A stretch of DNA of 63,256 nucleotides, the filler included, from Diploschistes diacapsis (Eukaryota): the NCBI GenBank assembly GCA_023645945.1. It is 6 parts of 6 records of this genome, joined end to end, with 100 filler letters (N's around TTAATTAATTAA, not from the genome) between each part and the next. Parts side by side here need not be neighbours in the genome. Positions count along the whole stretch, not along the records: positions 20,402 to 49,699 come from JALAIB010000136.1; 5 more parts are not named here. One strand, given 5' to 3'. A model generated the notes under the pieces. The model searched no databases. It was not told the origin of the DNA and saw only the letters and a list, made by a program, of their open reading frames with translations. The translations under genes and the position numbers were made by a program. Of the stretch, positions 27,907 through 52,911 are shown piece by piece (the stretch's first letter is position 1; each line of letters starts with the position of its first letter).

Positions 27907-28315
27907 TGCTCACATTGAGTATACTGTACCGCTGACTTAGGGGACGAAACTTAATGCTAATGCTATTGTACCCTGCGTACGTACCTTAGTGCAAGTTTAA
28001 TAGAAGCGCGCCGGGTGCGCACAGAAGTTTGGAGTCGGAGGTTCTATAATCGGTAGACTAGAGGCAATGGTGGTCCCAGCCACCTCAGTAGCCCTCGGTA
28101 AGCGTCCAATTAGGAAGCGCCACCACTTCGGGTCAGCTTATACTAATACTTTGTGCCTCGAGAGCTGCGGGGTATATTAGATGTGCAATCAAGTCTATGA
28201 AGAATTGTCTACTCGCTCGCTCGCACTCTCCAACAGTAAGCATTGTTCGAAACAACCGTCGACTAAAGTGTGGTTCCGTATCAGTCTACTGCGACTTCAG
28301 ACGATCTTGCAGGCT

Positions 28316-31300
28316 ATGTTCTTAAGGAACTTTCTTCCATCCACCTGGCGCCACAGCTGCCTGACAGAACCAAGTATGCTTGGAGGTACAATTATTCCCG
28401 ACTGGAGTACAGTCTTTACCGGGGCTCTATTCGCTCTAACGATCGCGATCTGCTGCCATGCACTCTTCTGGCGTCCACAGAAGAAGAAAAGTACCTCGAT
28501 CCCGGAAAAGACATTGATCCCCAAAAAGACATTGATCCTGCGCATCGAAGAGATTCCAGCGGGTATACCGCACGAAACCCTTCAACACGATCTCGAATCT
28601 ATTGTCTACCAGAATCCAATATTGAGGAAGGACGAGATCACTGTATTGCAAGCCTCCTTCGTTCCAATAGACCGGAAGACGGCCTGTGCGACCGCTGCCT
28701 TCCATACATCGCTCAAACCGGCCGACCTGATTAAATTATGCCAAGCGCATATTGGTCTGCCTTACCGCTTCGATAACAAGTTCGATGGTATTACGCCGCT
28801 TTACGAGGCCAGTGGAGGTGCAGATGTTGAGTAAGCATACTCCCTCAATCAAGGGCCACACATCATACACTTACGCCACACTTATGACAGCGTAATCGCC
28901 GTTCCCGGCCTCGGGAGCCACGCGATTGGTTCGTGGAAATCTCCCAGTGGTGATGATCTTTGGCTTCGAGATTACCTTCCCCGTGATATACCAAATATTC
29001 GAGTTCTACTATATGGTTACGATACCTCACTTCTAGGCGGTGATTGTAAAGATTCTATTGAGGACCTGGGTATTCGCTTTTTGGAGTCGGTAAAGGCTTT
29101 TCGTGCAGACACTGTACGTGGGATCTGAGAATATTGAGGCCACGTGGCTTATTCTGTGATAGGCACATCGCCGTCCAATTATATTCATTGGCCATAGTTT
29201 AGGAGGCTTGCTGATAAAGGAGGTAAAGCTTTCCGCAGATCTCGACCGTCAGAGAATAGATATTCACCTCATGGCAGGCACTAATTTGGGCGCGCGATCA
29301 ATCCACCGACCCACAGAGCCTCAATTTCTGTAAAGCTTGTTACGGATTGCTTCTCTTTGGTGTCCCGAATCATGGATTGCGAAACGACCAGCTAAAGAGC
29401 ATCGTTGAAGGCCAGCCAAACGAACTGCTGATACATGATCTGGTAGTCGACAGCGACTCTGAACCCACTCCGTTTCTGAAGAGAATCTCTCGCCAGTTCT
29501 CCAATTATTACAAGGGTCAATACCAAGTCATATCGTTCTTTGAAAGAAAAAAAAGTCCGACTGTAAAAGTGAGATACGTTCTCAGGCCAGTAAGAGGGAA
29601 AGGTTAATAACCAAACTTTAGTTCCAGCCAGATGGACAATTGACCAAGACCGGTCCAATGATATTCATGGTAACGCAAGAGTCCGCGACAAGCACGGGCT
29701 TAACTGCGGCAGGTGGTGAAAATAACATTCCACTTAACACGGACCACTCGGGACTCGTGAAATACCAAAGCCGGAGCCAAGAGGAATATAAAATTGTGAA
29801 GTCGAAGCTTAGTATACTTGTCGATGAGGCAAAACAGGAGGTCTGCAGACGGTTTACAGAAAAGGGTACGTTGGTAGGCGCTTTCACTAGAACATCTTTG
29901 AATGTTAGCACTAATCTTCGGTTCTTAGGCTTGACGGACGAAGAGTCACACCTGTGGCTTAATCTCAATCGGCCGCCATACTCAGCATTTAGGTATTCAT
30001 CAAAACTTGCTAGACCTGAGAAAGGCACACTGGAATGGCTCGTTCAAGAAAAGCATGCCAATGATAATTCTGAACTTAGGGCCAATAGCATGCCTGAAGG
30101 AAGTCTATGCATGAAGGACTTTAAGTCATGGCGAGACTCAAAGGAATCGGAAATCCTTCTGATAAGTGCTTCACCTGGAAGGGGCAAGTCAGTACTGTCG
30201 AATTTTGTCTTGGGACATCTTGAACGCAAAATACAGGAGGAACCGTCGCCTCGCAGCAAGGTCATCTACTATTTTTGCAATATCAGGAATGACGATGCTT
30301 CACCTAACGCATGTTCTGTACTCCAGGCACTCATTGTTCAGCTTTGTGAGGATTATCAGCGCCTGTTTCGAATTCTTCCCTCGGACTACCAGAAAGTTAG
30401 CGATCGCTTCTTCTCGGACTCTTTTGACACACTATGGTACACATTTGAGAAAATGCTGCAAAATGACACGTATGCTCGGGTTTTTTGTATCATCGACGGC
30501 CTTGATGTTTATCAAGAAATGGGTGAACTGATCACGAAATTAAATAAGGCTTTTAGCCCCAGAACCGAAGCAAAAAGTCGGGTCTTGAAATTATTTTGTA
30601 CAACCAGGCCCTCAAAGCCCATACTCGAGTTGTTGAAACCATCAAAGCCCAAGATTCTTCGCTGCAACGAAGATGACCTCGCCATCTTCATTGAATCACG
30701 GGTCAGTTCTCTGGAAGAGACCTTCGGAGCTGAGATTATACAGAGCATTAAAGACCAACTAAATGAGAAGGCTGAGAACACGTTCCTCTGGCTCGAAGTA
30801 GTCACCAGGGGAATTAGATCAATCGAAATGCCTACCCCGTCAAAGATAAAAGACACAATCGAGGACAACCCTGAGGAGCTCAATGACTTATACCATCTTT
30901 TGGTAAATAGCCTAGTTAAGAAAGACAAAGACAAAGCTCGCCTCCTAGCTTGGGTAGTTTACGCAAGGAGTCCTCTTGATCTCAGGGCCCTGGAAGACGC
31001 CATGGCCATTGATCTGACAAAGACGTATACGAGCTACGAGCAATGTAACCCAGATAAGCCATCTCTGAAGTCAGAGACCTTCCACAATGTCTTTGGCACG
31101 CTATTTGATATCGTTGAAGATAAGGTGTACTGTATACATCAGTCTCTCAAAGACTACTTTGAGAGTCGAAACCCCCTTGAGGAGTTCTTAGACCGTAAAC
31201 ACCCTCGACTGGTTCTCGCACATGTTTCCATGGCATACCTTTCTCTGGAAGAATTTGGACATCCCTCAAGGGACATGAATATGCTCCTACACAAGTTTCC

Positions 31301-32588
31301 GCTGCTTCGATACGCCGCTAATCACTGGTATTCCCATATAGAAAGTGCAGCAGATATCACTTGCTCTCCTCCACTCCAGGACTTTCTAAAGGAGATTATT
31401 CCTCCTAACAACCTTAAGACACAAGTCTGGATGAGTGAACATGTCAGCAAAATATATCCTAACTACCCGTCTCGTATTAGTGAAGTTGCAATTTATTTCG
31501 ATATTGGATGGCTCGCAGAACTACTCCTAAACAGAGAGCCGTGCGGCATTAGTGATGACTTCGAAAGAAATTGTTTATCACAAGCCATGACACGCCAAGG
31601 AGCAGTGTTGGAAGTCTTACTGAAACACGAGAGAGTTTTGGCGCTGACAGTGACGGGTGGTGAGGTTCGATTCATTGCAAGATTTCAACACTTTAGAATG
31701 ATGAAACTCCTTCTGGATCGACGAGGAACAGACGTTCAAATCACAGAAGAAGTGGTAGAAGCCGCTGCAAGGAACGATAAAAATGGCAGAGAAATAATGA
31801 CACTACTTCTCGATCGACGAGGAGCAGACGTTCAGATCACAGAAAAAGTGGTAGTAGCAGCTGCAGGGAGCTGGGGAAGTGGCAAGGACGTAATGACACT
31901 TCTTCTCGATCGACGAGGAGCAGACGTTCAGATCACAGAAAAAGTGGCAGTAGCAGCTGCAGGAAATAATGAAAGTGGCAAGGACGTAATGACACTTCTT
32001 CTCGATCGACGAGGAGCAGACGTTCAGATCACAAAAGAAGTGGTAGTAGCAGCTGCAGAGAACTTTTGGAATGCCAAGGACGTAATGACACTTCTTCTCG
32101 ACCGACGAGGAGCAGACGTTCAGATCACAGAAAAAGTGGTAGTAGCAGCTGCAGGGAACTATTGGAATGCCAAGGACGTAATGATACTACTTCTCGATCG
32201 ACGAGGAGCAGACGTTCAGATCACAGAAAAAGTGGTAGTAGCAGCTGCAGGGAATAGCAAGGACTCAATGACACTTCTTCTCGATCGACGAGGAGCAGAC
32301 GTTCAGATCACAGAGAAAGTGGTAGTAGCAGCTGCAGGAAACCATGAAAGTGGCAGAGCAATAATGGCACTACTTCTCGACCGACGAGGAGCAGACGTTC
32401 AAATCACAGAAAAAGTGGAAGTAGCAGCTGCAGGGAGCTGGGGAAGTGGCAAGGACGTAATGACACTTCTTCTCGACCGACGAGGGGCAGATGTGGAGAT
32501 TGCTAAAGAGGCGGTAAAAGTGATCGCAGAACACTTTGATGAGGAAGTAATAACACTTCTTCCTGAGCAACAAGGAGCAGACGCCTAG
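28316..32588 (+). CDS. Fungal NLR-like STAND protein: N-terminal TM segment, SesB-like alpha/beta-hydrolase, NACHT, ankyrin-like 32-aa repeats; introns 28831-28890, 29114-29162, 29223-29277, 29569-29621, 29866-29928
   Basis: All five GT-AG introns splice in frame; VIAVPGLG..GSW..WLRDYLP..RVLLYGYD, IFIGHSLGG, FGVPNHG, DHSGLVKY; Walker A ASPGRGKS, Walker B IIDGLD, AENTFLW, IHQSLKDY, YAANHWYSH; nine LLLDRRG repeats; start could be ATG 28316 or 28376. Confidence 0.9.
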
Positions 32589-32630
32589 ATCACAGAGAAA
32601 GTGGTAGAAGCAGCTGCAGGGAACGACAAC
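31701..32630 (+). repeat. Highly conserved 96-nt (32-aa) tandem repeat array of the NLR sensor domain
   Basis: Unit MTLLLDRRGADVQITEKVVVAAAG-xxxx-KDV, nearly identical at DNA level (e.g. cgatcgacgaggagcagacg at 31811 and 31907); one unit is 29 aa; a partial unit continues after the stop codon. Confidence 0.97.
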
Positions 32631-33400
32631 CCTTGATGAAGAAATTGGGCAGGCACGGTACAGCGGTGTTTGTTGATGGCACAATGTGAGGCCCTAGCTT
32701 TTCGCGGATATCTTTGTGTAGATCCGCCGGACGGCTTCTATCATAGAAGTCAGGCTTGGTCTTGATGATAGAGCCATCAGTTAGGTCTTTGAGGTTTCTA
32801 AAAAGAAGGTTCTCCTGCGAGGGGATGTCGGCGGTGCCAGCGATAACCGGGAATATTTTGCTTATCACTATGTTTTCAGTTAACGCTTCTTCATTGATCT
32901 GTTGGAAGGCTTTAAATGCGTTCTTAGAGAAGCGCGATGGGGAGAGAGACGGCGTTGGCTGTGCTATCCTGTTGTTGATTTCTGCTCAATTGCTTGGTTT
33001 CGGAGCGCGATTGTTCATATGTATGCCATGGTCGATGAGGTGCTGCTCGAAGATAGGGTTATAGGTAGAAGATTTTCTGGTTTTCGAGGATGTATCCGAT
33101 TCTCTTCCAGTTTTGGCTCGTTTTCGGAAGCCCGATTGACTTGAGGGCATCATTCGATTGGAAGGAGCTGCGGTTTCGGGGTCTGGATGTTATTATACCG
33201 TTAGAAAGTTATCCGAGAAGGTTAAATCGAATTTATAATTCTGAGGTGTTCGAGGTTTGGTCTATCGTGTCTTGCGAAGCGTTTAAGCTGTATAAGGTTA
33301 ATGTTTTTCTTGTTAGTCCGTTCAGGTGGCATAAGAGCAGCAGATTATTCAATCCTTCGATTAAACTCTTGAAGTGCGTCGGGAATGAGTCACAGCCGTG
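32631..33400 (-). pseudogene. Relic of a fungal accessory-region PD-(D/E)XK-like protein, truncated and mutated
   Basis: LKRFARH..PNL.HLR; SSTYNPIFEQHLIDHG..PSN*AE..QPTPSLSPSRFS..F.NL.DLTDG..KPDFYD.SRP..LGPHIVPS..PCLPNFF; TGA at 32986-32988; ends abruptly at the NLR repeat. Confidence 0.65.
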
Positions 33401-34026: not shown

Positions 34027-37000
34027 TTAGCCAGCTATCCTTTCTAACGCCCTTTTCGACCACATAGTATGTGCATGCTCTTTGCCTAGACATTTGCCCT
34101 GCCCGTCAAGTGCACCAGCATGATGTCTTCTGGCAACATCAATATCCCCTGAAATTTCATATAAACAAGCCAAGACTGTTCATAGCCAATAGTGCATCTG
34201 GATGCTGCGGTCCCAAAGCCCTTTCCCGCCGTGTCACTACATCTCGTTGCATTGCGATAGCATCTTGGATTCTGCCCTGGTCCCGGTAACAGCGTGCAAG
34301 ATCCGACATTATCCAGATGGGATGTGGATGGTCTGGTCCTAGCTGCTGCCTCTCTATCGTCAGCACTTGCTCGTGCAACGCAGCTGCCTCGTGTGGCCGG
34401 CCTTGCTTGAGTAGACAACGACCTAATGCGTTCTTTGTCCACGAGATGTGCAGGTCTGTCTCAGGGAATAGCACTTCAAGAATTTGAAGGGCCCTGCGAT
34501 GTAGAAGTTCTGCTTCCTCGGTGCGGTTTAAATGCCTACATATTCGGCCGAGTTCGTTGACTGTGAGTACGATGTCGAGATAATCCTAGGGCAGAGCTTA
34601 CTCTTAGCAGTTGAGCGCCTTCCTTTGCATGTTTTCCGCAAGTTCCGCCTTCCCTTGCTGGTCATATAGAATGCCCAAGCTATTTAAAAGCCAACAAGCA
34701 TTGGGCAAAAGAGTTGTATGAGAGCCAGCTGACTCTGCAAGCGCTGCCTCAAACATTTGAACGCCTCTGTCTAATTGGCCTGCCATGGTGTACTCTCGTG
34801 CAATATCGCGGACAATAATTGATCTCTCGAAGTTGGAGATCTCCCGCACAGAAGGCAAAGATGAGTTCGCTTTTGATGTCAACATCATCTCATCAAGCCG
34901 AAATAAGGCTCTCTGAATATCATTTAGGTCTTCGATGGAAGAATCATGAGCATCTGGCCTTTGCCTGGACCACGATCCAACTTTCTTTTGAAGCTTGACG
35001 ATATGTTGGAGGGGGAATGGCCGATCTCCAGATATCAGGGATCGTGCAATCCATATGGAGCGTCGGTCAGGAGATGCCACAAAGTCACTATACAATAAGT
35101 GAAAACTGTCATCACACTTAGACGATGATAAGTGATAGCACCAATTCTCCGTTGCATATCGTGCGAGTGGATACTCAACCGTATCTACATTCACAGTGTC
35201 GGCGATACCCTCCAAAGCCAAGTATGACAGCAGCGTCTCCACAATCTCCTGATGAGCCATCTCTTCCCTTATCTGGAAAACGTCCTCGTCAGGAGATGAC
35301 TGCATGTTATTAGCATGGTTGAGAATGTATTCATGGACAGAGTGATGAGCGAAGTGGAAGGTGTCTTGACGGTAAGTGGCCAGAGGACAGCACAGTTCCA
35401 ATACCGAGTCTCTGAATGGAGCCAACTATTTGCAGAAGACTTTTCTCTTTCCGTCCCATGACAAGGCGCACTGCAGCTCTTCCCAATGTAATGGGCTTGC
35501 GCTACCACATATCCACAGAAAAACCCTCCGAGCTATTTCTTGTCTTGCAGACGACTCACACCTGAGACGGTCTAGTAGAAGGCCGTAGACATTGTCCAGG
35601 CCATGGGGTAACTCATCCAGAGCCTTTGTCATTTCGCACATATTGATAGTTGATTGAAGAGTTTGAATGCACAAATGAGCATAGAGGAACATGCCATCGG
35701 CCTTTCTAGAAAATACTGTGAACATGCGCTCTTTTAAATTGTCATCATGATAGGGCAGGTCATCCACGGCTTTCTTTAGGTACCTATCAATATCTAGCTT
35801 GGTTGATATCGCATCCACATGTATTGAATCCGCCTTGTCCAGTTCCCTGCGAATGCCGAGCACGTTCCTAGAGAGGCAGATCAGATGCAGTGATGGCAGT
35901 GCTTGTGCAGCAGCTGTAAATGATCTTGTTATTTCCGTGACGTTCTCGGACTCGTCCAGGCCATCAATCACTAAGTAAAGAGCCGGCAGAGATCTCACTA
36001 CTTGTTCAAACATGGAGAATACATGGTCCGAGGAGGAAACGATAGTTCGGCCATAGGCTTTCGCACTTTGATAAGTACTCAGTATGATTTCGGGGATGTC
36101 ATCAACCTGAGCCAGTATTTGTGCCAAAATGCTTGCACAGATGTCTAAAAGGGAAATTTTCTTCTTGTCGGCCGAATAGCAATAAAAGTATGCTACTAGC
36201 GGCCCGTCCATCTCCGTACCACTTCGTAGTTGCTCGAGGTGTTCTACCACGATTGTACTGAGAACTGTTTTACCCGAACCAGGGGCCCCAGAAATCCAAA
36301 GGCTTTTCGGAAAGGAATGTGAGAGGTCAAGCCATTGCTGGAAGACGGGATGCTCAAGGAGCCATTGACCGGTCCCTTGCAACCGCTTGGAGATAGCTTG
36401 CTGAAAGTCTTCCCAGTATGCGACGCGGTTGAGCCACGCCATGACCGAATTCCGCGTCTCCAGATTTCCGAGATTAGCAATATATTATGGCAAAATTCTC
36501 TGCATAAATGTGGGATTTACCAGTACGTCGGTTTTTTCTCTCATTTTTTATGTGAGTGTCGATGCGTTGCCTCGAGCACAATGCCACTTCTGCGTTGAAT
36601 ACGTTGGTACACTGAGAGACAAGCCGGAGGTTGTCCCCAAATTCTGCCTCGAAAGGCTGGAATACTGTTTTGACAAATACTCTAAAAGCTTTGCCCGATA
36701 TTAGTGTCCGGCATGATATGAATGTAAGCAGCGACCGAAGGACACTAGTTACCGCTCCCTGTAAGGACGTCTCGCACTAGTTGTAAAAACAGAAGAATAT
36801 TAAGGTATAGGTTTACCCACGAGGCACAAACTCGAGGTTCCTCAGCGAGCATCCTTTCGTATTGGCAAGATATTGAGATAACATCGCTGAGTTTCGAAAT
36901 CGTCTCTGAGATTAGTCGAAAGTAATAGAAAGAGCCTCGAGCTATCTTCGCTCAATTAGCCACCATATCGGGGAAAGTTGTGGTCATGGCTGTTCAAATC

Positions 37001-42366: not shown

Positions 42367-43764
42367 AGACTATCTGTATGTAGCTTTGTACGAAAAGGGA
42401 TAGTTAAGCGAGAATAAATGCTTCGGCGTTAGAAAGGGTATCCGGTTTTGTGGATTGGTTCTCATCCCGGGGCTAGAGGTATCTAGCTGAAAGGGAAGAT
42501 ACACTTTAGGGCTTGGTGAGGTTGAGGTTGCAATGAATGGGCCTGAATGGCACCCGTACACTACTACGCCCTCCGGAAGCATCTTGAGATGATCATTGCC
42601 CATACAAAGTGCTAAATATCTTTCCCTTGATCTGCGTTTGGGGTCACTGTGAGTCTGTGCCCCCCCGGCTCTCTTCCCAGTCGATGCCGCAGTCATCGTG
42701 GTTTCAAAACTCCGGAGTCACTGACAGACTGCTTTCCGCATCCCAGCCATTACAAATAAATAGGGTTTGCAGTGACTCTCTGTACCATTGAATGCGCCGT
42801 CAGGAGATCACGGGTCATTGGAAAGATTACTACTATAAGCTCCTAAATGAAAGGCTCAGGGTGTCGCCTGAATGGCGGAGCAACTTAAAGCGGTAGTTTA
42901 AGGAGATGAAGAGCATGGGTGGGTGGGATGACTTAGTTCAGGGCCGCTGATCAGGACACAGAGACGACGCCGTTGGAGCCGGGAGAAGCTATTAAAAATT
43001 AAAAACGGTGTGGCCCTATCCTACCTAGTATTGCTAATGCCGAGAGAGACAGTAGACAGTAGCTGATCGAGTAAGCAGCAACGGCGGAAAAACGACGGAG
43101 AACTTCTCACTTCCCCCCCCCTTCCCTTCCCTCTCCCCTTTGCTATGTAACGATTACCTAGTCGTAGTATACTTCCCTACTACTTGTCCACTACAGAGTC
43201 TCTCTTTTCTTTTCCTTTCCTCCTCTCATCATAGCTTTGGGTTTCCCTTTACGAGCTGCGACACCCACAGGCTCACAGTTCCACCCAGGATATGCCACCT
43301 TAGCAATCGGAGATTCGGTTACCTCCCGTAACTCCGCCGAGCTTACAACTAAACACCACCGAGCCTTGTGCAGACCTCTCCAATCTTTCTCCCTTGAACC
43401 TCCTATCTCGTGCAAATCGCACCAGCAGCTAGCGAGCAAGTACATACCGTAATCCTTGACAGACGCAGCGACGCCACCATTGTTGCGTACGGAACGTTTC
43501 TGTTGTCGTCGGTCTTCGCAGCTTCGTCTTACTTCCGCTTTATCCGGACCGCTGTAATAGCGCAAAGAACACTTGAAGTTACCACAAATTTATGTGAAGC
43601 AAGAATCGCAGCAATCTCTGACTTCCGCATTGTCTAATAGGCGATAACTTCGGAGCCCTCCTGCATGGGAATTCACGTGCAAGAATATCCACTTTCGGTA
43701 CTGGGCAGTCCTTTGCATTTCAACTCTGGATGACCACGACTCAAGAGAAGCAACAACGGCGGCT

Positions 43765-46700
43765 ATGGCTGAGCAGCCGTTGCCAAATGGCGTCAGCATT
43801 TCGAAGCCGGCTAGGAGAATACGATGGGCGACCCAACGCGTTGGTACAGGAGTCGCGCAGGTAAAAAGAAATCGTATCATGAGTAGACTATCTCTGCGAG
43901 GCTCAAGCAATGAGATGAAAAGAGAATCTGGTAGTTCTGGCTCGATAGGCAAGCATTCGCCTTCTACCGATGCGGCTGGCGATGGGGAAGGTGGAAGGCG
44001 GATATTCTTCAACATGCCACTGCCGGCCGATTCGAGAGATGAGGAGGGGAAGCCGCTCGTACATTACAGTCGCAACAAGATTCGCACCGCCAAGTACACC
44101 CCGTTGACTTTCATACCCAAGAATTTGTGGTACCAATTTCACAACATTGCAAACGTCTATTTTCTTACCCTCATTGTGTTAGGGGTAAGTCTTTTTTCTC
44201 AAGGAATGCTTGTTGCTGGCCTAACCATCAGTTCCAGTTTTTTAGTGTTTTTGGAGTCAACAATCCAGGCCTCAACGCCGTACCCCTGATCGTGATTATC
44301 GTTCTTACGGCGTTCAAGGACGGAATCGAAGATTGGCGGAGAACCGTACTCGACAACGAGCTCAACAATGCGCCGGTACACAGGCTCATGGACTGGGAGA
44401 ATGTCAACTCTGCGGAGGATGAGGTTTCGTTGTGGAGGCGAATCAAGAAGGCAACCTCTCATGGTATTCTTAACACCTTCCATACCTGGCAGCAATGGAG
44501 GAGGCGGAAATCTGGTGGTGGAAGAGGCTACACCGAGAGGGCTATGGACGAGGAGCGCATGTCTATCGACACTAGGCGCTCTTCGTATAGGGGCCCCAAA
44601 AAGTCAACAAACGAGGGCGGAATCCAGATGACCCCTGTTTCTTCGCCTCTTCCCAAAGATCAATCCGAGGCCGAGCTTTCTCGGGCAAATGCCAGGCTAC
44701 GGTCAAAAACCACGTATTCGTTCAAAGCGGGAGAAACGGACGGTATAGAAGGAGACGGCGTCGCAACTGGTCACGGCCACGCATCTGCAGGTCCGTACGG
44801 TAGCTTAATAGATCCTATCGAGCAGACTCGTGGCAAAGCTCGTTTCAGAAAGGATTACTGGAAAAACGTCCATGTTGGGGACTTCGTTAGGATACACAAT
44901 GACGACCAAATCCCCGCCGATATTGCCATCCTATCCACGTCGGAACCGGACGGTGCCTGTTACGTCGAGACTAAGAACCTTGATGGAGAGACAAACTTGA
45001 AGGTCAGGCAGGCACTACACTGCGGCCAGGACATCCGGCACGCGACAGACTGCGAGAAGGCACAATTTATTCTCTATAGCGAGCAGCCTCACACGAATCT
45101 CTACGCGTACAGCGGGCTATTAAAGTGGACTCAGCGCAAATCGTCGGACCCGCAGCGCTCAGAGGTGGAAAAGACGGAGCCCTTGACGATCAACAATCTG
45201 CTGCTTCGTGGATGCAACCTACGTAACACGGAGTGGATAATCGGAGTTGTCGTGTTTACCGGCCCCGACACCAAGATCATGCTGAATGCGGGCATCACAC
45301 CTTCGAAACGTTCGAGAATCTCTCGCCAGCTGAACTATAATGTGCTGTACAACTTCACTATCCTTCTGATAATGTGTCTCGTCTCTGGGATCGTCAATGG
45401 AGTAACGTTTGGGAAAAGCCACGATTCATGGAACTTCTTCGAATTTGGACAATACGGTGACACTCCCGGCGTTACTGGTCTCATCACTTTCTGGAGCGCC
45501 ATCATTTTATACCAGAACTTGGTCCCAATCTCCCTTTATATCAGTTTGGAAATCATCAAGACCGCACAGGCCTTCTTCATCTACAGCGATACTTATATGT
45601 ACTATGAGCGTCTCGATTACCCCTGCACACCCAAATCCTGGAACATATCCGATGATCTTGGCCAAGTTGAGTACATCTTCTCGGACAAAACGGGAACATT
45701 GACGCAAAACGTCATGGAGTACAAGAAGTGTACTGTCAACGGGGTTAGCTATGGCGAAGCTTACACAGAGGCTTTGGCCGGTATGCAAAGACGGCAAGGG
45801 ATCGATGTCGAGGCGGAAGGTGCAAAGGCAAAAGAGCAAATCGCAGAAGATCGGATCCGGATGCTCAAGACCCTAAGAGGGATCCACGACAATCCCTATC
45901 TCCACGATGACGAGCTTACCTTCGTTGCTCCAGATTTTGCGGAAGACTTAACGGGAGCAGTGGGTGAGGAGCAAGCGGAAGCGAATAAGAATTTCATGTT
46001 GGCTCTTGCTCTCTGCCACACCGTCACCACCGAAAGGACCCCGGGAGATCCTCCGAAACTGGAGTTCAAGGCCCAGTCGCCCGATGAAGCAGCATTGGTT
46101 GCGACTGCTCGAGATTGTGGCTTCGCTGTGATGGGCAGGCAGAACGACACAATGATCGTTAATGTGCAAGGAGTCGAGGAGAAGTTCGAGGTCTTGAACA
46201 CGCTCGAGTTTAATTCTTCACGAAAGCGAATGAGTGCCATTATTCGCATGCCTGACAACAGGATCGTACTTTTCTGCAAAGGTGCTGATAGCGTCATCTA
46301 TTCGCGTCTGAAGAAGGGTGAACAGAGTAAGTTGAGAAGGGACACTGCCGAACAGTTGGAGATGTTTGCGAGGGAGGGCTTGCGCACGCTTTGCATAGCT
46401 CAAAAGGTTGTAACCGAGGGGGAACACCAACGGTTCAGCATGGAGCATGACGCTGCCGCCACTGCAATAAATCATCGGGAAGAAAAGATTGAGGAGGTCT
46501 TCGACGCCATGGAAAGGGATCTTTCACTGATAGGGGGCACTGCAATCGAAGATCGTCTGCAAGATGGTGTGCCGGACACGATCGCACTGCTTGGGCAAGC
46601 CGGCATCAAGCTCTGGGTCTTGACGGGCGATAAAGTCGAAACCGCAATCAACATTGGATTCGCGTGCAATCTGCTGAGCAACGAGATGGATCTCATCGTA

Positions 46701-48483
46701 ATGAGATTCGAGACTGACGATCTCGGACTTGTAGAGGCAGAACTTTCGAAACATCTGCACACTTTTCAAATGACGGGCTCAGACACGGAGCTGAGAGCTG
46801 CTAGGAGGAATCACGAAGCTCCGGCTCCCACGCACGCCATCGTCATTGATGGCGACTCATTGAAGCTAGTGCTTGATGAGCAGGTTCGACGGAAGTTCTT
46901 GCTCCTTTGCAAACAATGCAAGGCCGTTTTGTGTTGCCGTGTCAGCCCAAGTCAGAAAGCGGCTGTCGTGCAGATGGTCAAGAATGGACTTGACGTGATG
47001 ACGCTTTCTGTTGGAGATGGTGCCAACGATGTCGCTATGATTCAGGAGGCAGATATAGGAGTCGGCATAGCTGGAGAAGAAGGTCGCCAAGCAGTCATGT
47101 CGTCTGATTATGCCATTGGCCAGTTCCGGTTCTTGCAAAGGTTGGTTCTCGTTCATGGTCGCTGGTCATACCGGCGCTTGTCAGAGACTATTGCGAATTT
47201 TTTCTACAAGGTAGGTTGCTCGTCGCTAATCTAGCGAGAATTCCTGCTAATCCTCGCAGAACATTGTCTGGACCTTTGCGCTCTACTGGTACCAAATCTT
47301 CGACAACTTCGACTGCAACTATCTCTTCGACTACAGCTACGTCCTCCTCTTCAATTTAGCCTTTACGTCGCTACCAATCATCTTCATGGGCATTCTAGAC
47401 CAAGACGTCAGCGATAAGATCTCTCTGGCGGTACCGCAACTATACAGGAGAGGTATCGAGCGCAAAGAATGGACGTCACTCAAGTTCTGGATGTACATGT
47501 TGGACGCTCTGTACCAATCCGTAATATGCTATTTCATGCCATATTTTCTGTTTGCTCCGGCTCGATCTGTTTCGTCGAACGGCCTCGACTTGAACGAAAG
47601 AGTTCGCTACGGAAATTTCACTGCGACGTCTGCCATCTTTGTCGTCAACTTCTACGTGTTGATGAATACCTATAGATGGGATTGGTTGATGGTGCTACTG
47701 ACCAGTATCAGTATCCTCTCCGTTTGGTTCTGGTCTGGCGTTTACAGTTCTTTTGTCGGGTCCGACACTTTCTACAAGGCGGGCGCAGAAGTCTTCGGTG
47801 CATTATCATATTGGGTTACAGCACTTCTGATTATCATCATTTCCCTTCTACCCAGATTCGCCGTCAAGGCGTTCCAGAAGGTGTTCTTCCCCTATGATGT
47901 CGACATAATCCGCGAGCAAGCAAGGCAAGGCAAGTTCGGATACTTGGACGACTTGCCATCCGATGCTTCTCCAGCCAAGCTCGCGGGCGGCAACTCATTC
48001 AATGGGGCTAGATCCGATGAAAATGCATACGGTAGGGCCCCCAAGTCCCTCGAGGAAGACATGAGACCAATTTATCCTCCATCAGTTGCACCCACCTTAA
48101 AGACAACGACAACGAATAACCGACACAGCACAAGCGGCAGCATCAACTCGGTGAATATCGGGCCAGCGATCTTTGAAGAATCGCCTGTAGAACCTCATTC
48201 GATGACCGAGCCTAGCAATAGACCCACCTACTCGAGGCCCACTTCATACCAGAGCCCGGTTTCGCTAGAACCACCTGTGCCACTGGAACGAGTTCGTACC
48301 TCGATGGACCGACCAAGACCGTCTTTCGATAGAATACGCAACTCCATGGACATTGTACGTCCCAGTTTCGAGGCCAGCAACGACTTCACCTCGGCGTCGC
48401 GGCTGATGAAGCTGGATTCAAATCATTCCGAACTCCCTTTGCCGTCGCCGCGACTTTCGAAAGGACCATCGAACCTCCGGTAG
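43765..48483 (+). CDS. DNF1: P4-type ATPase phospholipid flippase, Dnf1/Dnf2-like; introns ~44185-44238 and ~47211-47259
   Basis: NKIRTAKYTP, ETKNLDGETNLK, QNLVPISLYIS, FSDKTGTLT, QSPDEAALV, KGADS, WVLTGDK, CCRVSPSQKA, GDGANDVAM, GQFRFLQRL. Confidence 0.95.
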
Positions 48484-50201: not shown

Positions 50202-50895
50202 TTAGTTTTTTGCATTTAGCTGCACAAAGATCTTGTCAAAGCTATGTTCGTTCCAGTAGACCTTCGGACACAGCCCCGACAGCTTCCACTCGCCATCCAC
50301 CCTCTTGTACCAGTGCTTGACGAAGGAGTGGCCGTGTCCCCTATTCTCGACCGTTACTCCATCTGGTGCATAACGCTGATGCGCCGCACGAATCTGGTTG
50401 TGGCCAATCACCTCCGTCTCAGAGACGCGTTCGAACTTCCTGGCTCCCATTAGGTGTTGGGTGCGGATCAGGGGATCCCCCAGGAACGCAGGTGAGCTCA
50501 TCATTGCCACAAACTCATCAGCAGGGACGTTGTCGATTCTTTCGTGACCGACAATACTATAGTCGATCATCATGGTCGGTGCCAGGATCTTCCTCAGCCG
50601 TGGCCAGTCCTGACCGTCCCGCGTAAGCTTGGCCAGCGGTATAGATTCGGTCAGTTATCGTACCTTGTTGTCGTAGCTATCAGCCCATTCGAAAACGATT
50701 TCTGTGAGGGCAAGGTAATCTATCGAGTTGAGTAAGTGCAAGGGAAGCCAGCCTCGGCACGTCACCTCTACCTTCGAACGTGATTTTCGCTGGAGCCAGC
50801 GCAGCAGATTTGGGAGGGGCTTCGGCGGACCCTGGGCCAACCTTCCAGGATGTCTGACTATAAGACTCAGTGGCAGTTGCAGTGGGGGGGGTCAT
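50202..50895 (-). CDS. SCD1: Scytalone dehydratase (DHN-melanin type); two short introns
   Basis: ITFE|DYLAL..FEWADSYDNK|DWPRLRKILAPT..IDY..FLGDPLIRTQHLMG..QIRAAHQRY..GHGHS..HWYKRVDGEWKLSGL.P.V.WNE. Confidence 0.93.
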
Positions 50896-51856
50896 GGCGA
50901 AAAGCTTTGCAAGGAGGCGAGCAAGGTTTCTGAAGGACTGTGCAACGGCGCTTTCAGGCCGCCGGGTAGTCATGTAGTCGAGCGATAGGCGTAAATGAGA
51001 TGGAAAATGTTCCCTTGATAAGGATATAAATCACAAGATGCTCGCTGTGGCCATCGAGAGTTTGAATGATCCCACGAGTGCGAGCGTCTCCGTGAGACAT
51101 GGCTGCCAGAAAGCAAAGTCCGCCTTTCCTCGCACAGCAGTATACCGACCTCACGCACCGCGTCCCCATTACAGGTAAGGACCAACTGTTCGCTCGGCAA
51201 GGCAACGCATCCAAGGACGAGAAGAGTAACAGGCCTAAAGCGCGAGGTAGCCAGGAAACTCATGCTTAGGCCTCAGCATGCGAATTTTGTCCCAGATAGG
51301 TGAAATGCTTAGTTAACCAAGCTCGGTTAGCGGTGAGGGATATGGACACAAGCTTGCGGTTAGCTGCATTGATGCACGCGTCGGCGAACGAGACCCTGCG
51401 CATTCAGTGGTACGAGGTAGATCTAGCTGCCGAACGCCGAGACTAACAGCGGAACGAATCAGTATTGGCCTCGAGTTCTGGCCATGGGATTCGGAAGAGG
51501 CAATACTGCAAAGCCTATCGCATTGCGAACGACCAAAAGTTTAGTTCAACTGCTGGCGTTTGAAAAGGGCAATACCGATAAAGGTAAAGAAAACCAGAGA
51601 ATCAAAGATGTCAAGATCGGAAGGCGATGGCTTCGCAAGAGTCTGCGAGGCCGTGAGGGCAAAGGGAAGAATACTACATAACCTAGACAGATTGCATGAG
51701 CTCTGGCTGATAGTTATTGCAAATTCGGAAGAGTCAGCATCAGCAACATCTGACAATTTACTATTCTTGTCTGCTTTAGTGCAAAGCACGGAAACTTTGC
51801 AGTCATCAAAAGTAATACTCTAATTACCCACCTCACCGGTCTCGTCCCGCGTCAAC

Positions 51857-52911
51857 ATGGCCGTTGAAGAAGGTCAGAGCAACGGCGTCGTACCAGTTTC
51901 AAACGGCAGCAGTTCCAACGACAACATAATCCATGGCAATGGTAGCTACCATTACTTCTCCAAGCCACTCGCAGGCAAAGTCGCGCTCGTTACAGGCGGA
52001 GGTCGCGGTATCGGGGCGGGCATTGCGCGCGAACTAGCCATCAAAGGTTGCTCTGGCATCATCATCAATTACGCCTCGAGCAGCAAAAGCGCCGCCGCCG
52101 TCGTAGCAGACCTCGAGAGCCTCGGCACCAGCGCAACCGCCATTCGCGCAGACCTGACAAAGTACAAGGAAGTCGACCAGCTATTCGAGCAGGCTGTAGC
52201 GAAGTACGGCCGACTGGACATCGTGGCCAGCAACTCCGGCAAGGAGATGTTCCGTCCTCTTCTCGAGACGACCGAGGAAGATTTCGACGGCATCTTCAAC
52301 CTCAACACGCGCGCACAGTTCTTCGTTGCGAAAGCAGCCCTCAAGCATATTTCGCCACATGGCCGTGTTATCCTGATGTCTTCGATTGCGGCTGGACTAG
52401 GCGTCGCAGGCCACGCCCTCTATGCTGGGTCGAAGAATGCGGTCGAGGGCTTTACGCGCTGCTTTGCCAAAGACTTTGGTGTGAAGAAATGCACGGTCAA
52501 CTGTATTGCACCTGCGGGTGTAAAGAGCGACATGTGGACTCAGAATGCGTGGCGGTATGCGCCTGGGTGCAACAAGTCAAGCACTCCAGCAGAGATCGAG
52601 GCCAGCCTTGCAGCCGGAAGCCCGTTGAACAGAGTTGCAGTACCTGGTGACATTGGACGCTGCGTGGCCTTTCTAGCGAGCGAGGAGGGCGAATGGGTCA
52701 ACGGTCAGTACATTGAGCCCTTACACTTGACTTTGTAGCACTTGAGCATCTGTCGGTGTGATGAGATGCTCCCTTCTCAACCACTGGCTTTGCAAGCGGC
52801 ATTTCCGCCACACCCTTCCTTCCATGACATTAGTCTTTGGTGGGCCTTGCTGACGATCTAACGCCACCATTAGGTCAAGTAATCCCTCTAAACGGCGGTG
52901 CCTCGGTCTAA
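51857..52911 (+). CDS. Hydroxynaphthalene reductase (SDR), tetrahydroxynaphthalene-reductase/Arp2-like; intron 52703-52873
   Basis: LAGKVALVTGGGRGIG, NSG, NTRAQFFVA, HALYAGSK (YxxxK), TVNCIAPAGVKSDM, EWVN|GQVIPLNGG. Confidence 0.9.

Follow-up and report, generated by a model that had tools for sequence, protein, structure and literature searches.

Does a fungal NOD-like receptor (NLR) with a predicted lipase as its effector wait for its trigger already fixed to a membrane? The question is raised by a gene at positions 28316 to 32588 of a 63,256-nucleotide stretch of DNA from the lichen-forming fungus Diploschistes diacapsis (assembly GCA_023645945.1; six parts joined end to end, together called the window). 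Its product would carry, in order, a hydrophobic helix followed by basic residues, a small domain, an alpha/beta hydrolase, a NACHT-type NTPase, and an array of closely similar repeats. Our analysis suggests, with a probability of about 0.6, that the gene encodes an intact NLR of the SesB-like-lipase/NACHT/ankyrin-like kind that resides on a membrane and in which oligomerization would activate the lipase, leading to cell death or defense.

The order of helix, lipase, NACHT module, and repeats is in itself a common, already known kind of fungal NLR. A first inspection of the DNA (the sequence-only reading) had described SesB-like hydrolases as an established N-terminal class of fungal NLRs, and this is supported by Dyrka 2014 (PMC4986451), in which this predicted lipase/esterase class accounts for ~20% of annotated fungal NLR N termini and its lipase domain is the one found in human SERAC1. 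In a survey of the Sordariales (PMC12258605), SesB-like domains combine with NACHT and with NB-ARC modules. SesB-like lipase domains are among the commonest N-terminal modules of fungal NLRs, and a conserved anchor, which would hold the enzyme on a membrane in a topology that can be predicted, would offer a testable picture of where such a receptor acts.

Exon structure and translation start

Joining the six exons (3993 nt) yields 1330 codons and a stop, without an internal stop codon, from an ATG at 28316 to a TAG at 32586-32588; the five introns are 60, 49, 55, 53, and 63 nt long, and all five have GT..AG borders. The sequence-only reading had proposed such a gene, with five introns and an uninterrupted protein of roughly 1300 residues, and its coordinates proved exact. 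The deposited product of the same gene, P0001 (1252 aa; from a metagenome-assembled genome of D. diacapsis and named hypothetical protein by its source), begins at Met21 of the five-intron product and runs from ...AFRADT directly into LKSIVEGQ..., omitting the exon that encodes the nucleophile elbow, GHSLGG. Aligned with EPUS_05851 of Endocarpon pusillum (P0002), the five-intron product showed 67.6% identity with 8 gap positions (442 columns), compared with 53.0% identity and 67 gap positions for the deposited model, and it aligned better than the deposited model with every one of the seven relatives compared. Because it is more closely colinear with independently annotated relatives, five-intron splicing is, by these alignments, the better model.

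The exon left out of the deposited annotation is only 60 nt long, and automatic gene models tend to lose it, as seen in P0001 and in the Gyalolechia relative P0003, whose deposited model also lacks the nucleophile micro-exon. An elbow match was missing from the first 700 residues in 20 of the 97 relatives retrieved with residues 1-330, P0001 and P0003 included. As the nucleophile exon is dropped by annotation, surveys of deposited proteins may score SesB-like effectors as inactive or miss the domain.

The reading frame offers three ATG codons, at 28181, 28316, and 28376. The deposited model, P0003, P0098, and P0099 either begin at Met21 or align to it (MLGGTIIPDW versus MIGGPVYPNW), and translation therefore likely starts at 28376, the second ATG of the earlier model; with relatives beginning at the counterpart of Met21, codons 1 to 20 of that model are probably 5' leader. 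The extent proposed by the sequence-only reading thus stands for the exons and the stop, while its start at 28316 gives way to the downstream ATG. The first 400 residues contain methionines only at positions 1, 21, 376, and 379. With no AUG between the helix and the nucleophile, Ser258, any lipase-bearing product that starts at an AUG would keep the anchor. A start downstream of the hydrophobic segment, raised beforehand as one of the observations that would speak against an anchored lipase, is ruled out in this form: the next methionine after Met21, residue 376, lies past the nucleophile, and no AUG start could drop the helix and keep the enzyme.

The N-terminal helix and its companion domain

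The hydrophobic segment and the RPQKKK flank that had been read ahead of the hydrolase are present (VFTGALFALTIAICCHALFW-RPQKKK, 28412-28489). VFTGALFALTIAICCHALFW is the top 19-residue Kyte-Doolittle window of the whole protein, with a mean of 2.12 over a hydrophobic run of 20 residues; the classical criterion is 1.6. For comparison, 188 relatives were assembled, 97 from the search with residues 1-330 and 91 more from a representative library. Exon 1 could be aligned to 183 of them; in 148 the small domain was preceded by 25 residues or more, and the other 35 were dropped as truncated. A 19-residue window of at least 1.6 was found in 122 of the 148, the window's own product included, and one of at least 2.0 in 102. 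With the own product excluded, the helix was present in 121 of 147 relatives (counted as sequences, near-duplicates included), compared with 0 of 147 when the 100 residues beginning at the small domain were scanned as a control.

Position and charge follow the same pattern across these 121 relatives. The helix begins at a median of 8 residues from the N terminus and ends at a median of 21 residues ahead of the small domain; the mean net charge is -0.67 in the 15 residues before it and +3 in the 15 residues after it, and the charge is higher behind the helix than before it in 117 of the 121. By the established positive-inside rule, positive charge behind the helix would place the short N terminus outside and the body of the NLR in the cytosol, and we infer from these sequence features that the helix stays on the protein as a signal-anchor, uncleaved, and that the receptor behind it is cytosolic. 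An N-terminal hydrophobic segment could also be a cleaved signal peptide, which would make the product secreted or luminal, but this is hardly credible here: the 20-residue run has no net positive charge before it and positive charge behind it, the reverse of the distribution in a signal peptide, and on this ground the candidate was rejected. There would also be no precedent, to our knowledge, for a NACHT receptor driven by ATP outside the cytosol.

The sequence of the helix is conserved among close relatives alone (ICC[HY]ALFWRP, in proteins of lichens and Eurotiomycetes), the helix and flank of P0002, P0003, P0005, and P0048 included, and more distant relatives keep its hydrophobicity and not its sequence. 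Beside the basic flank, one or two cysteines close to the cytosolic end of the helix are conserved in P0002, P0048, and P0100; going by their position, they could conceivably be candidate S-acylation sites. The helix also occurs on stand-alone relatives and on NACHT/ankyrin, NACHT/DUF7104, and NB-ARC/TPR fusions. In a set of 146 proteins with an initial Met and a retained elbow, it was found in 82 of 116 with the small domain and in 3 of 30 without it. Because the helix goes with the small domain, the anchor is a regular feature of this clade but not of DUF676/SesB-like proteins as a whole. The sequence-only reading had called the added signal-anchor unusual and had proposed a survey of its frequency; that description holds for the hydrolase relatives without the small domain and fails for those that share it, among which the transmembrane segment is the rule.

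The small domain itself (~95 aa) matches no known family by the means used: exon 1 gave no Pfam match and no usable ESM Atlas match. Exon 1 was matched by 100 proteins of the representative library at E<=1e-3, and among longer proteins the sole match was the gene's own deposited product. Its predicted fold class, with the order beta-alpha-beta-beta-alpha-beta, was read from the secondary-structure order alone of an AlphaFold model of P0118, a 490-aa stand-alone relative that is 53.6% identical to the window's product (425 columns). This model, built on a 54-sequence alignment (pLDDT, a per-residue confidence score, 84.5; pTM, 0.78), shows a free helix (residues 22-40), a disordered linker (45-58), a compact domain (68-162; pLDDT ~97), and an alpha/beta hydrolase (169-412) followed by a long helix.

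We consider it possible, at somewhat less than even odds, that a large SesB-like clade possessed the anchor and the small domain ancestrally, as parts that the literature has largely overlooked. They are apparently little described for SesB-like effectors: neither the helix nor the ~95-aa pre-lipase domain is mentioned in the main texts of PMC4986451, PMC9815663, PMC12258605, and PMC3321046, from which the word "transmembrane" is absent, and in PMC13449251, PMC12881547, PMC10197012, and PMC5485727 that word occurs only in other contexts, which is not proof of a feature being unpublished, subscription papers being outside this scope. If the ancestral view is true, these NLRs and the stand-alone lipases would be resident integral-membrane proteins, unlike pore-forming effectors that insert on activation. 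The helix of HeLo and HeLo-like NLR effectors, which also has transmembrane propensity (PMC10197012), offers the contrast: it belongs to a folded bundle, from which activation frees it for pore formation, whereas the helix of the protein described here is predicted from the P0118 model to be free and followed by a disordered linker before the enzyme, and the effector would be that enzyme.

Which membrane would be involved is the point on which the main rival explanation differs. Human SERAC1 carries a single N-terminal transmembrane segment (32-54) together with a serine-lipase domain and is located at the mitochondria-endoplasmic reticulum (ER) interface (PMC6687635), so that in architecture, the only level compared, it resembles the window's protein in joining a single N-terminal segment to a serine lipase of the same broad class; unlike that protein, it has no NACHT module or sensor repeats, and its lipase domain is C-terminal (396-540). 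The anchor might accordingly target an organelle membrane (mitochondrial outer membrane or ER-mitochondria contact), where the lipase would remodel organelle phospholipids in the manner proposed for SERAC1 and not attack the plasma membrane. The equation of the two lipase domains by Dyrka 2014 favors such a role, as do the moderate hydrophobicity of the helix and its strongly basic C-terminal flank, and several stand-alone relatives are named "Protein SERAC1" by their sources, although these names are automatic labels. Since helix hydrophobicity spans 1.6 to 3.1 among relatives, no single membrane destination can be read from it, and we regard the organelle explanation as doubtful. Were the ancestral view of the anchor correct, descent from a SERAC1-like organelle-contact lipase would be possible, and NLR surveillance might take place partly on a specific endomembrane.

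Hydrolase, NACHT module, and repeat array

The hydrolase lies upstream of the NPHP3_N module in the window's protein, and in relatives it is found on NACHT proteins, on NB-ARC proteins, or alone. It keeps both motifs credited to it at the outset, the GHSLGG elbow and the Asp-His pair, the latter within NTDHSGLVKY. Across the 54-sequence alignment, the P0118 residues Ser256, Asp400, and His401 hardly vary, and their equivalents are present in the window; sequence conservation thus covers the serine and the Asp-His pair of a putative catalytic triad. Pfam was run on single exons and open frames, and the 20-aa exon 3 gave only weak hydrolase matches. In intact relatives, DUF676 reached 25.1 bits against a cutoff of 20.3 (P0118), and Abhydrolase_6 was above its cutoff in P0154, P0002, and P0010. 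Membership in the SesB-like class is suggested by a Sordariales NLR table in which the "sesB" profile and Pfam DUF676 fall on the same residues (PMC12258605; 12 of 17 supplementary files searched), an indirect link through profile overlap.

A structure search with the P0118 model, run without a prefilter, placed the Legionella phospholipase PlaB first (Z 20.2 over 232 residues; root mean square deviation [rmsd], 3.6), followed by the Bacillus lipase BlEst2 (Z 19.6). Below these, numerous esterases, lipases, and thioesterases formed a plateau near Z 17, with PGAP1/Bst1 among them at 16.6. Foldseek with the same model returned only generic alpha/beta hydrolases (template modeling [TM] score, ~0.3), and a profile of the whole-length alignment A1 run against Protein Data Bank sequences was dominated by ankyrin proteins and was uninformative for the hydrolase. 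Assignment as the glycosylphosphatidylinositol inositol-deacylase PGAP1/Bst1 was rejected: the PGAP1 profile reached 13.1 bits against a cutoff of 24.3, on the 20-aa exon only, it had no match at E<=0.01 in six intact relatives, and the Bst1 structure lies within the generic plateau.

The stand-alone relatives connect this hydrolase with the lipases described beside NLR genes. P0118 has 125 stand-alone relatives at E<=1e-10, often with the helix and with short G/N/Q-rich tails. Adjacent to NLR genes, SesB and SBP likewise exist as stand-alone lipases that bear sigma or PP amyloid motifs (PMC3321046, PMC5485727), and stand-alone proteins such as P0118, P0179, P0201, and P0207 share the window's helix, N-terminal domain, and hydrolase and carry G/N/Q-rich tails. 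The tail of P0201, ...VGNDGLQFFG..., contains NDGLQ, which by eye resembles the PP-motif consensus of PMC3321046. Tails such as NGGxxSQGN or VGNDGLQFFG (P0201, P0192, P0193, P0207, P0118, and P0179) resemble amyloid signaling motifs, also by eye, and those of P0118 and P0179 had no Pfam match. Unlike the stand-alone SesB/SBP proteins (Daskalov et al. 2012, PMC3321046), the lipase of the window is fused to its receptor in an "all-in-one" arrangement, without an amyloid motif.

Behind the hydrolase, the NACHT-type module is followed by a weak match to GPIID_WHD, the winged-helix domain that succeeds NACHT in this family and that was recorded on many relatives too. A NACHT module followed by a hypervariable repeat sensor, as the sequence-only reading had it, is a fair description of this part of the protein (NPHP3_N, 6.6e-26; variable columns 21-28). 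DUF7104 is matched in nine stretches (5.1e-125), and Tandem Repeats Finder counts 8.3 copies of a 96-nt unit, at 85% matches. Variation is concentrated in columns 21-28 of the unit, with up to 7 residues per column; among differing codon pairs, 104 are nonsynonymous and 16 synonymous in these columns, versus 89 and 63 in the other 24. The last 371 residues were modeled (pLDDT, 91.2) as a solenoid of short-helix/long-helix hairpins, and on our own mapping to this model the variable patch would fall in the loop that joins the short helix to the long one. Because the best Foldseek matches to the modeled solenoid are ankyrin solenoids (AnkB, E 1.8e-4; espin, TM score of 0.56-0.63 with an rmsd of 4.8), we take DUF7104 as an ankyrin-like repeat. 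Pfam Ank gave 61.8 bits over the whole protein, with no single stretch passing, and DUF7104 is far stronger.

In these features, the protein resembles the SesB-like/NACHT/repeat NLRs of filamentous ascomycetes, which have a predicted N-terminal lipase, a central NACHT module, and closely similar C-terminal repeats with variable positions; unlike those surveyed, it has ankyrin-like 32-aa DUF7104 repeats in place of canonical ANK, WD, or TPR units. P0002, P0003, P0005, and P0048 show the same order of helix, N-terminal domain, hydrolase, NPHP3_N, and DUF7104, with 26 DUF7104 stretches in P0002 compared with 9 in the window's protein.

The array ends at a TAG that occupies the glutamine (CAG) position of the repeat consensus, with repeat-like DNA continuing in frame. 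A count by eye gave 5 differences from the Tandem Repeats Finder consensus in the 51 nt around the stop; past the TAG, the frame reads ITEKVVEAAAGNDNP and then reaches two TGA codons (32586-32639), so that the loss amounts to 15 codons at most. A recent C-to-T change in a CAG codon may have produced the stop, or the end of the array may have moved. The stop could be taken as the mark of a silent or decaying gene, a recently truncated or unexpressed copy in an NLR family of fast turnover. We consider this very improbable, given that all 1330 codons are open, the splice sites of the six exons are canonical, and Walker A, Walker B, the serine, and the histidine are intact. The relative P0002 likewise ends just past its GADVQI motif, and the GC content of the gene is like that of its neighbors (0.45-0.48). 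As judged from its sequence, the gene is intact.

Table 1. Positions of the lipase NLR, its parts, and other features in the window
Feature	Position	Strand	Basis or remark
Coding region, earlier model	28316..32588	+	six exons, 1330 codons + TAG
Exons	28316-28830, 28891-29113, 29163-29222, 29278-29568, 29622-29865, 29929-32588	+	rebuilt from sequence
Probable true start ATG (Met21 of earlier model, A at -3)	28376..28378	+	deposited model and relatives
Hydrophobic helix VFTGALFALTIAICCHALFW, predicted single-pass signal-anchor	28412..28471	+	Kyte-Doolittle scan, relatives
Basic flank RPQKKK after helix, positive-inside signal	28472..28489	+	sequence
Small N-terminal domain, ~95 aa, predicted beta-alpha-beta-beta-alpha-beta order	28529..28807	+	P0118 model, no Pfam family
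Alpha/beta serine hydrolase, DUF676/SesB-like class, interrupted by introns 1-4	28826..29865	+	Pfam on relatives, model
Micro-exon 3, 60 nt, with nucleophile elbow GHSLGG at 29190-29207	29163-29222	+	left out of deposited annotation
Asp-His of NTDHSG, candidate catalytic His	29742..29747	+	NTDHSGLVKY at 29736-29765
NACHT-type NTPase, Pfam NPHP3_N	30114..30608	+	6.6e-26, 91.9 bits, cutoff 24.8
Walker A, SPGRGKS	30171-30191	+	sequence
Walker B, FCIIDGLD	30483-30506	+	sequence
Weak GPIID_WHD winged-helix match	30942..31043	+	E 0.0088, 16.9 bits, cutoff 27
Repeat array: eight canonical 32-aa DUF7104 units (one of 29), a variant unit, a partial unit	31707..32585	+	
TAG at Q position (CAG) of repeat consensus, then 36 nt of repeat-like DNA in frame	32586..32624	+	
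131-aa open frame directly downstream of lipase NLR	32593-32985	-	no Pfam family at E<=1e-4
Second NLR gene	34160-36951	-	NPHP3_N/NACHT 35429-36484 (2.6e-35), then TPR_12/TPR_10 34160-35425
P4-ATPase, phospholipid-translocating flippase, ~11 kb downstream	43648-48480	+	no link to lipase NLR implied
Scytalone dehydratase	50205-50654	-	3.5e-50
Short-chain dehydrogenase	51824-52735	+	7e-46

Possible mode of action and genomic surroundings

Our combined results suggest a receptor that would be permanently tethered to a membrane by its N terminus, with the enzyme ~20 flexible residues from the bilayer. A ligand bound at the variable repeat loops might release NACHT-driven oligomerization, which would cluster or unlock the lipase domains beside the tethering bilayer; the lipases would then hydrolyze lipid of that membrane, and lipid breakdown could lead to cell death or a defense response. 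By analogy, a tethered lipase that is activated by oligomerization and kills the cell is plausible.

Several points weigh against this reading. The anchor call rests on a Kyte-Doolittle scan, a charge bias, and predicted structure; the anchor counts do not represent independent events, and 26 of the 147 relatives with at least 25 upstream residues show no hydrophobic segment. The fold matches of the hydrolase are generic alpha/beta hydrolases, its lipase activity is a prediction, and a search of P0118 against the sequences of solved proteins returned 4 rows with E values of 0.46-0.77, none of them significant. A role of SesB-like domains in death is described as shown "more indirectly" (PMC9815663), and the published account of CgSBP, if that protein carries the helix, would fit poorly with a lipase that never leaves its target membrane. 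At the far end of the protein, the stop codon falls inside a repeat unit.

The indirect nature of the link to death also favors a rival explanation in which the hydrolase is a signaling or regulatory enzyme with a nonlethal defense product, or a decoy or sensor, with no executioner role. The original sesB phenotype was a growth alteration (PMC3321046), and PlaB, the closest structural match, stands barely above the plateau of generic hydrolases. Most of the annotated N-terminal domains in NLRs from fungi, on the other hand, belong to death-associated classes (PMC13449251, PMC9815663), and conservation of the catalytic serine and histidine argues against a dead decoy; we consider a nonlethal or decoy role unlikely and retain the anchored, oligomerization-activated lipase as the preferred reading.

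The surroundings of the gene were scanned with Pfam in 60 of the 87 open frames of at least 130 aa, the other 27 overlapping longer frames. Neighbors include Nup54, a DEAD helicase, a TPT transporter, 6-phosphogluconate dehydrogenase, an RNA recognition motif (RRM) protein, an aspartyl protease, NIPA, pantoate ligase, the P4-ATPase, scytalone dehydratase, the short-chain dehydrogenase (SDR), BRAP2, and polyubiquitin, and among the scanned frames none suggested an operon-like partner of the lipase NLR. In frames extending to ~36951, the second NLR gene shows an N-terminal region that looks helical and carries no annotation. The scytalone dehydratase adjoins the short-chain dehydrogenase, and the two look like part of a dihydroxynaphthalene (DHN)-melanin gene pair.

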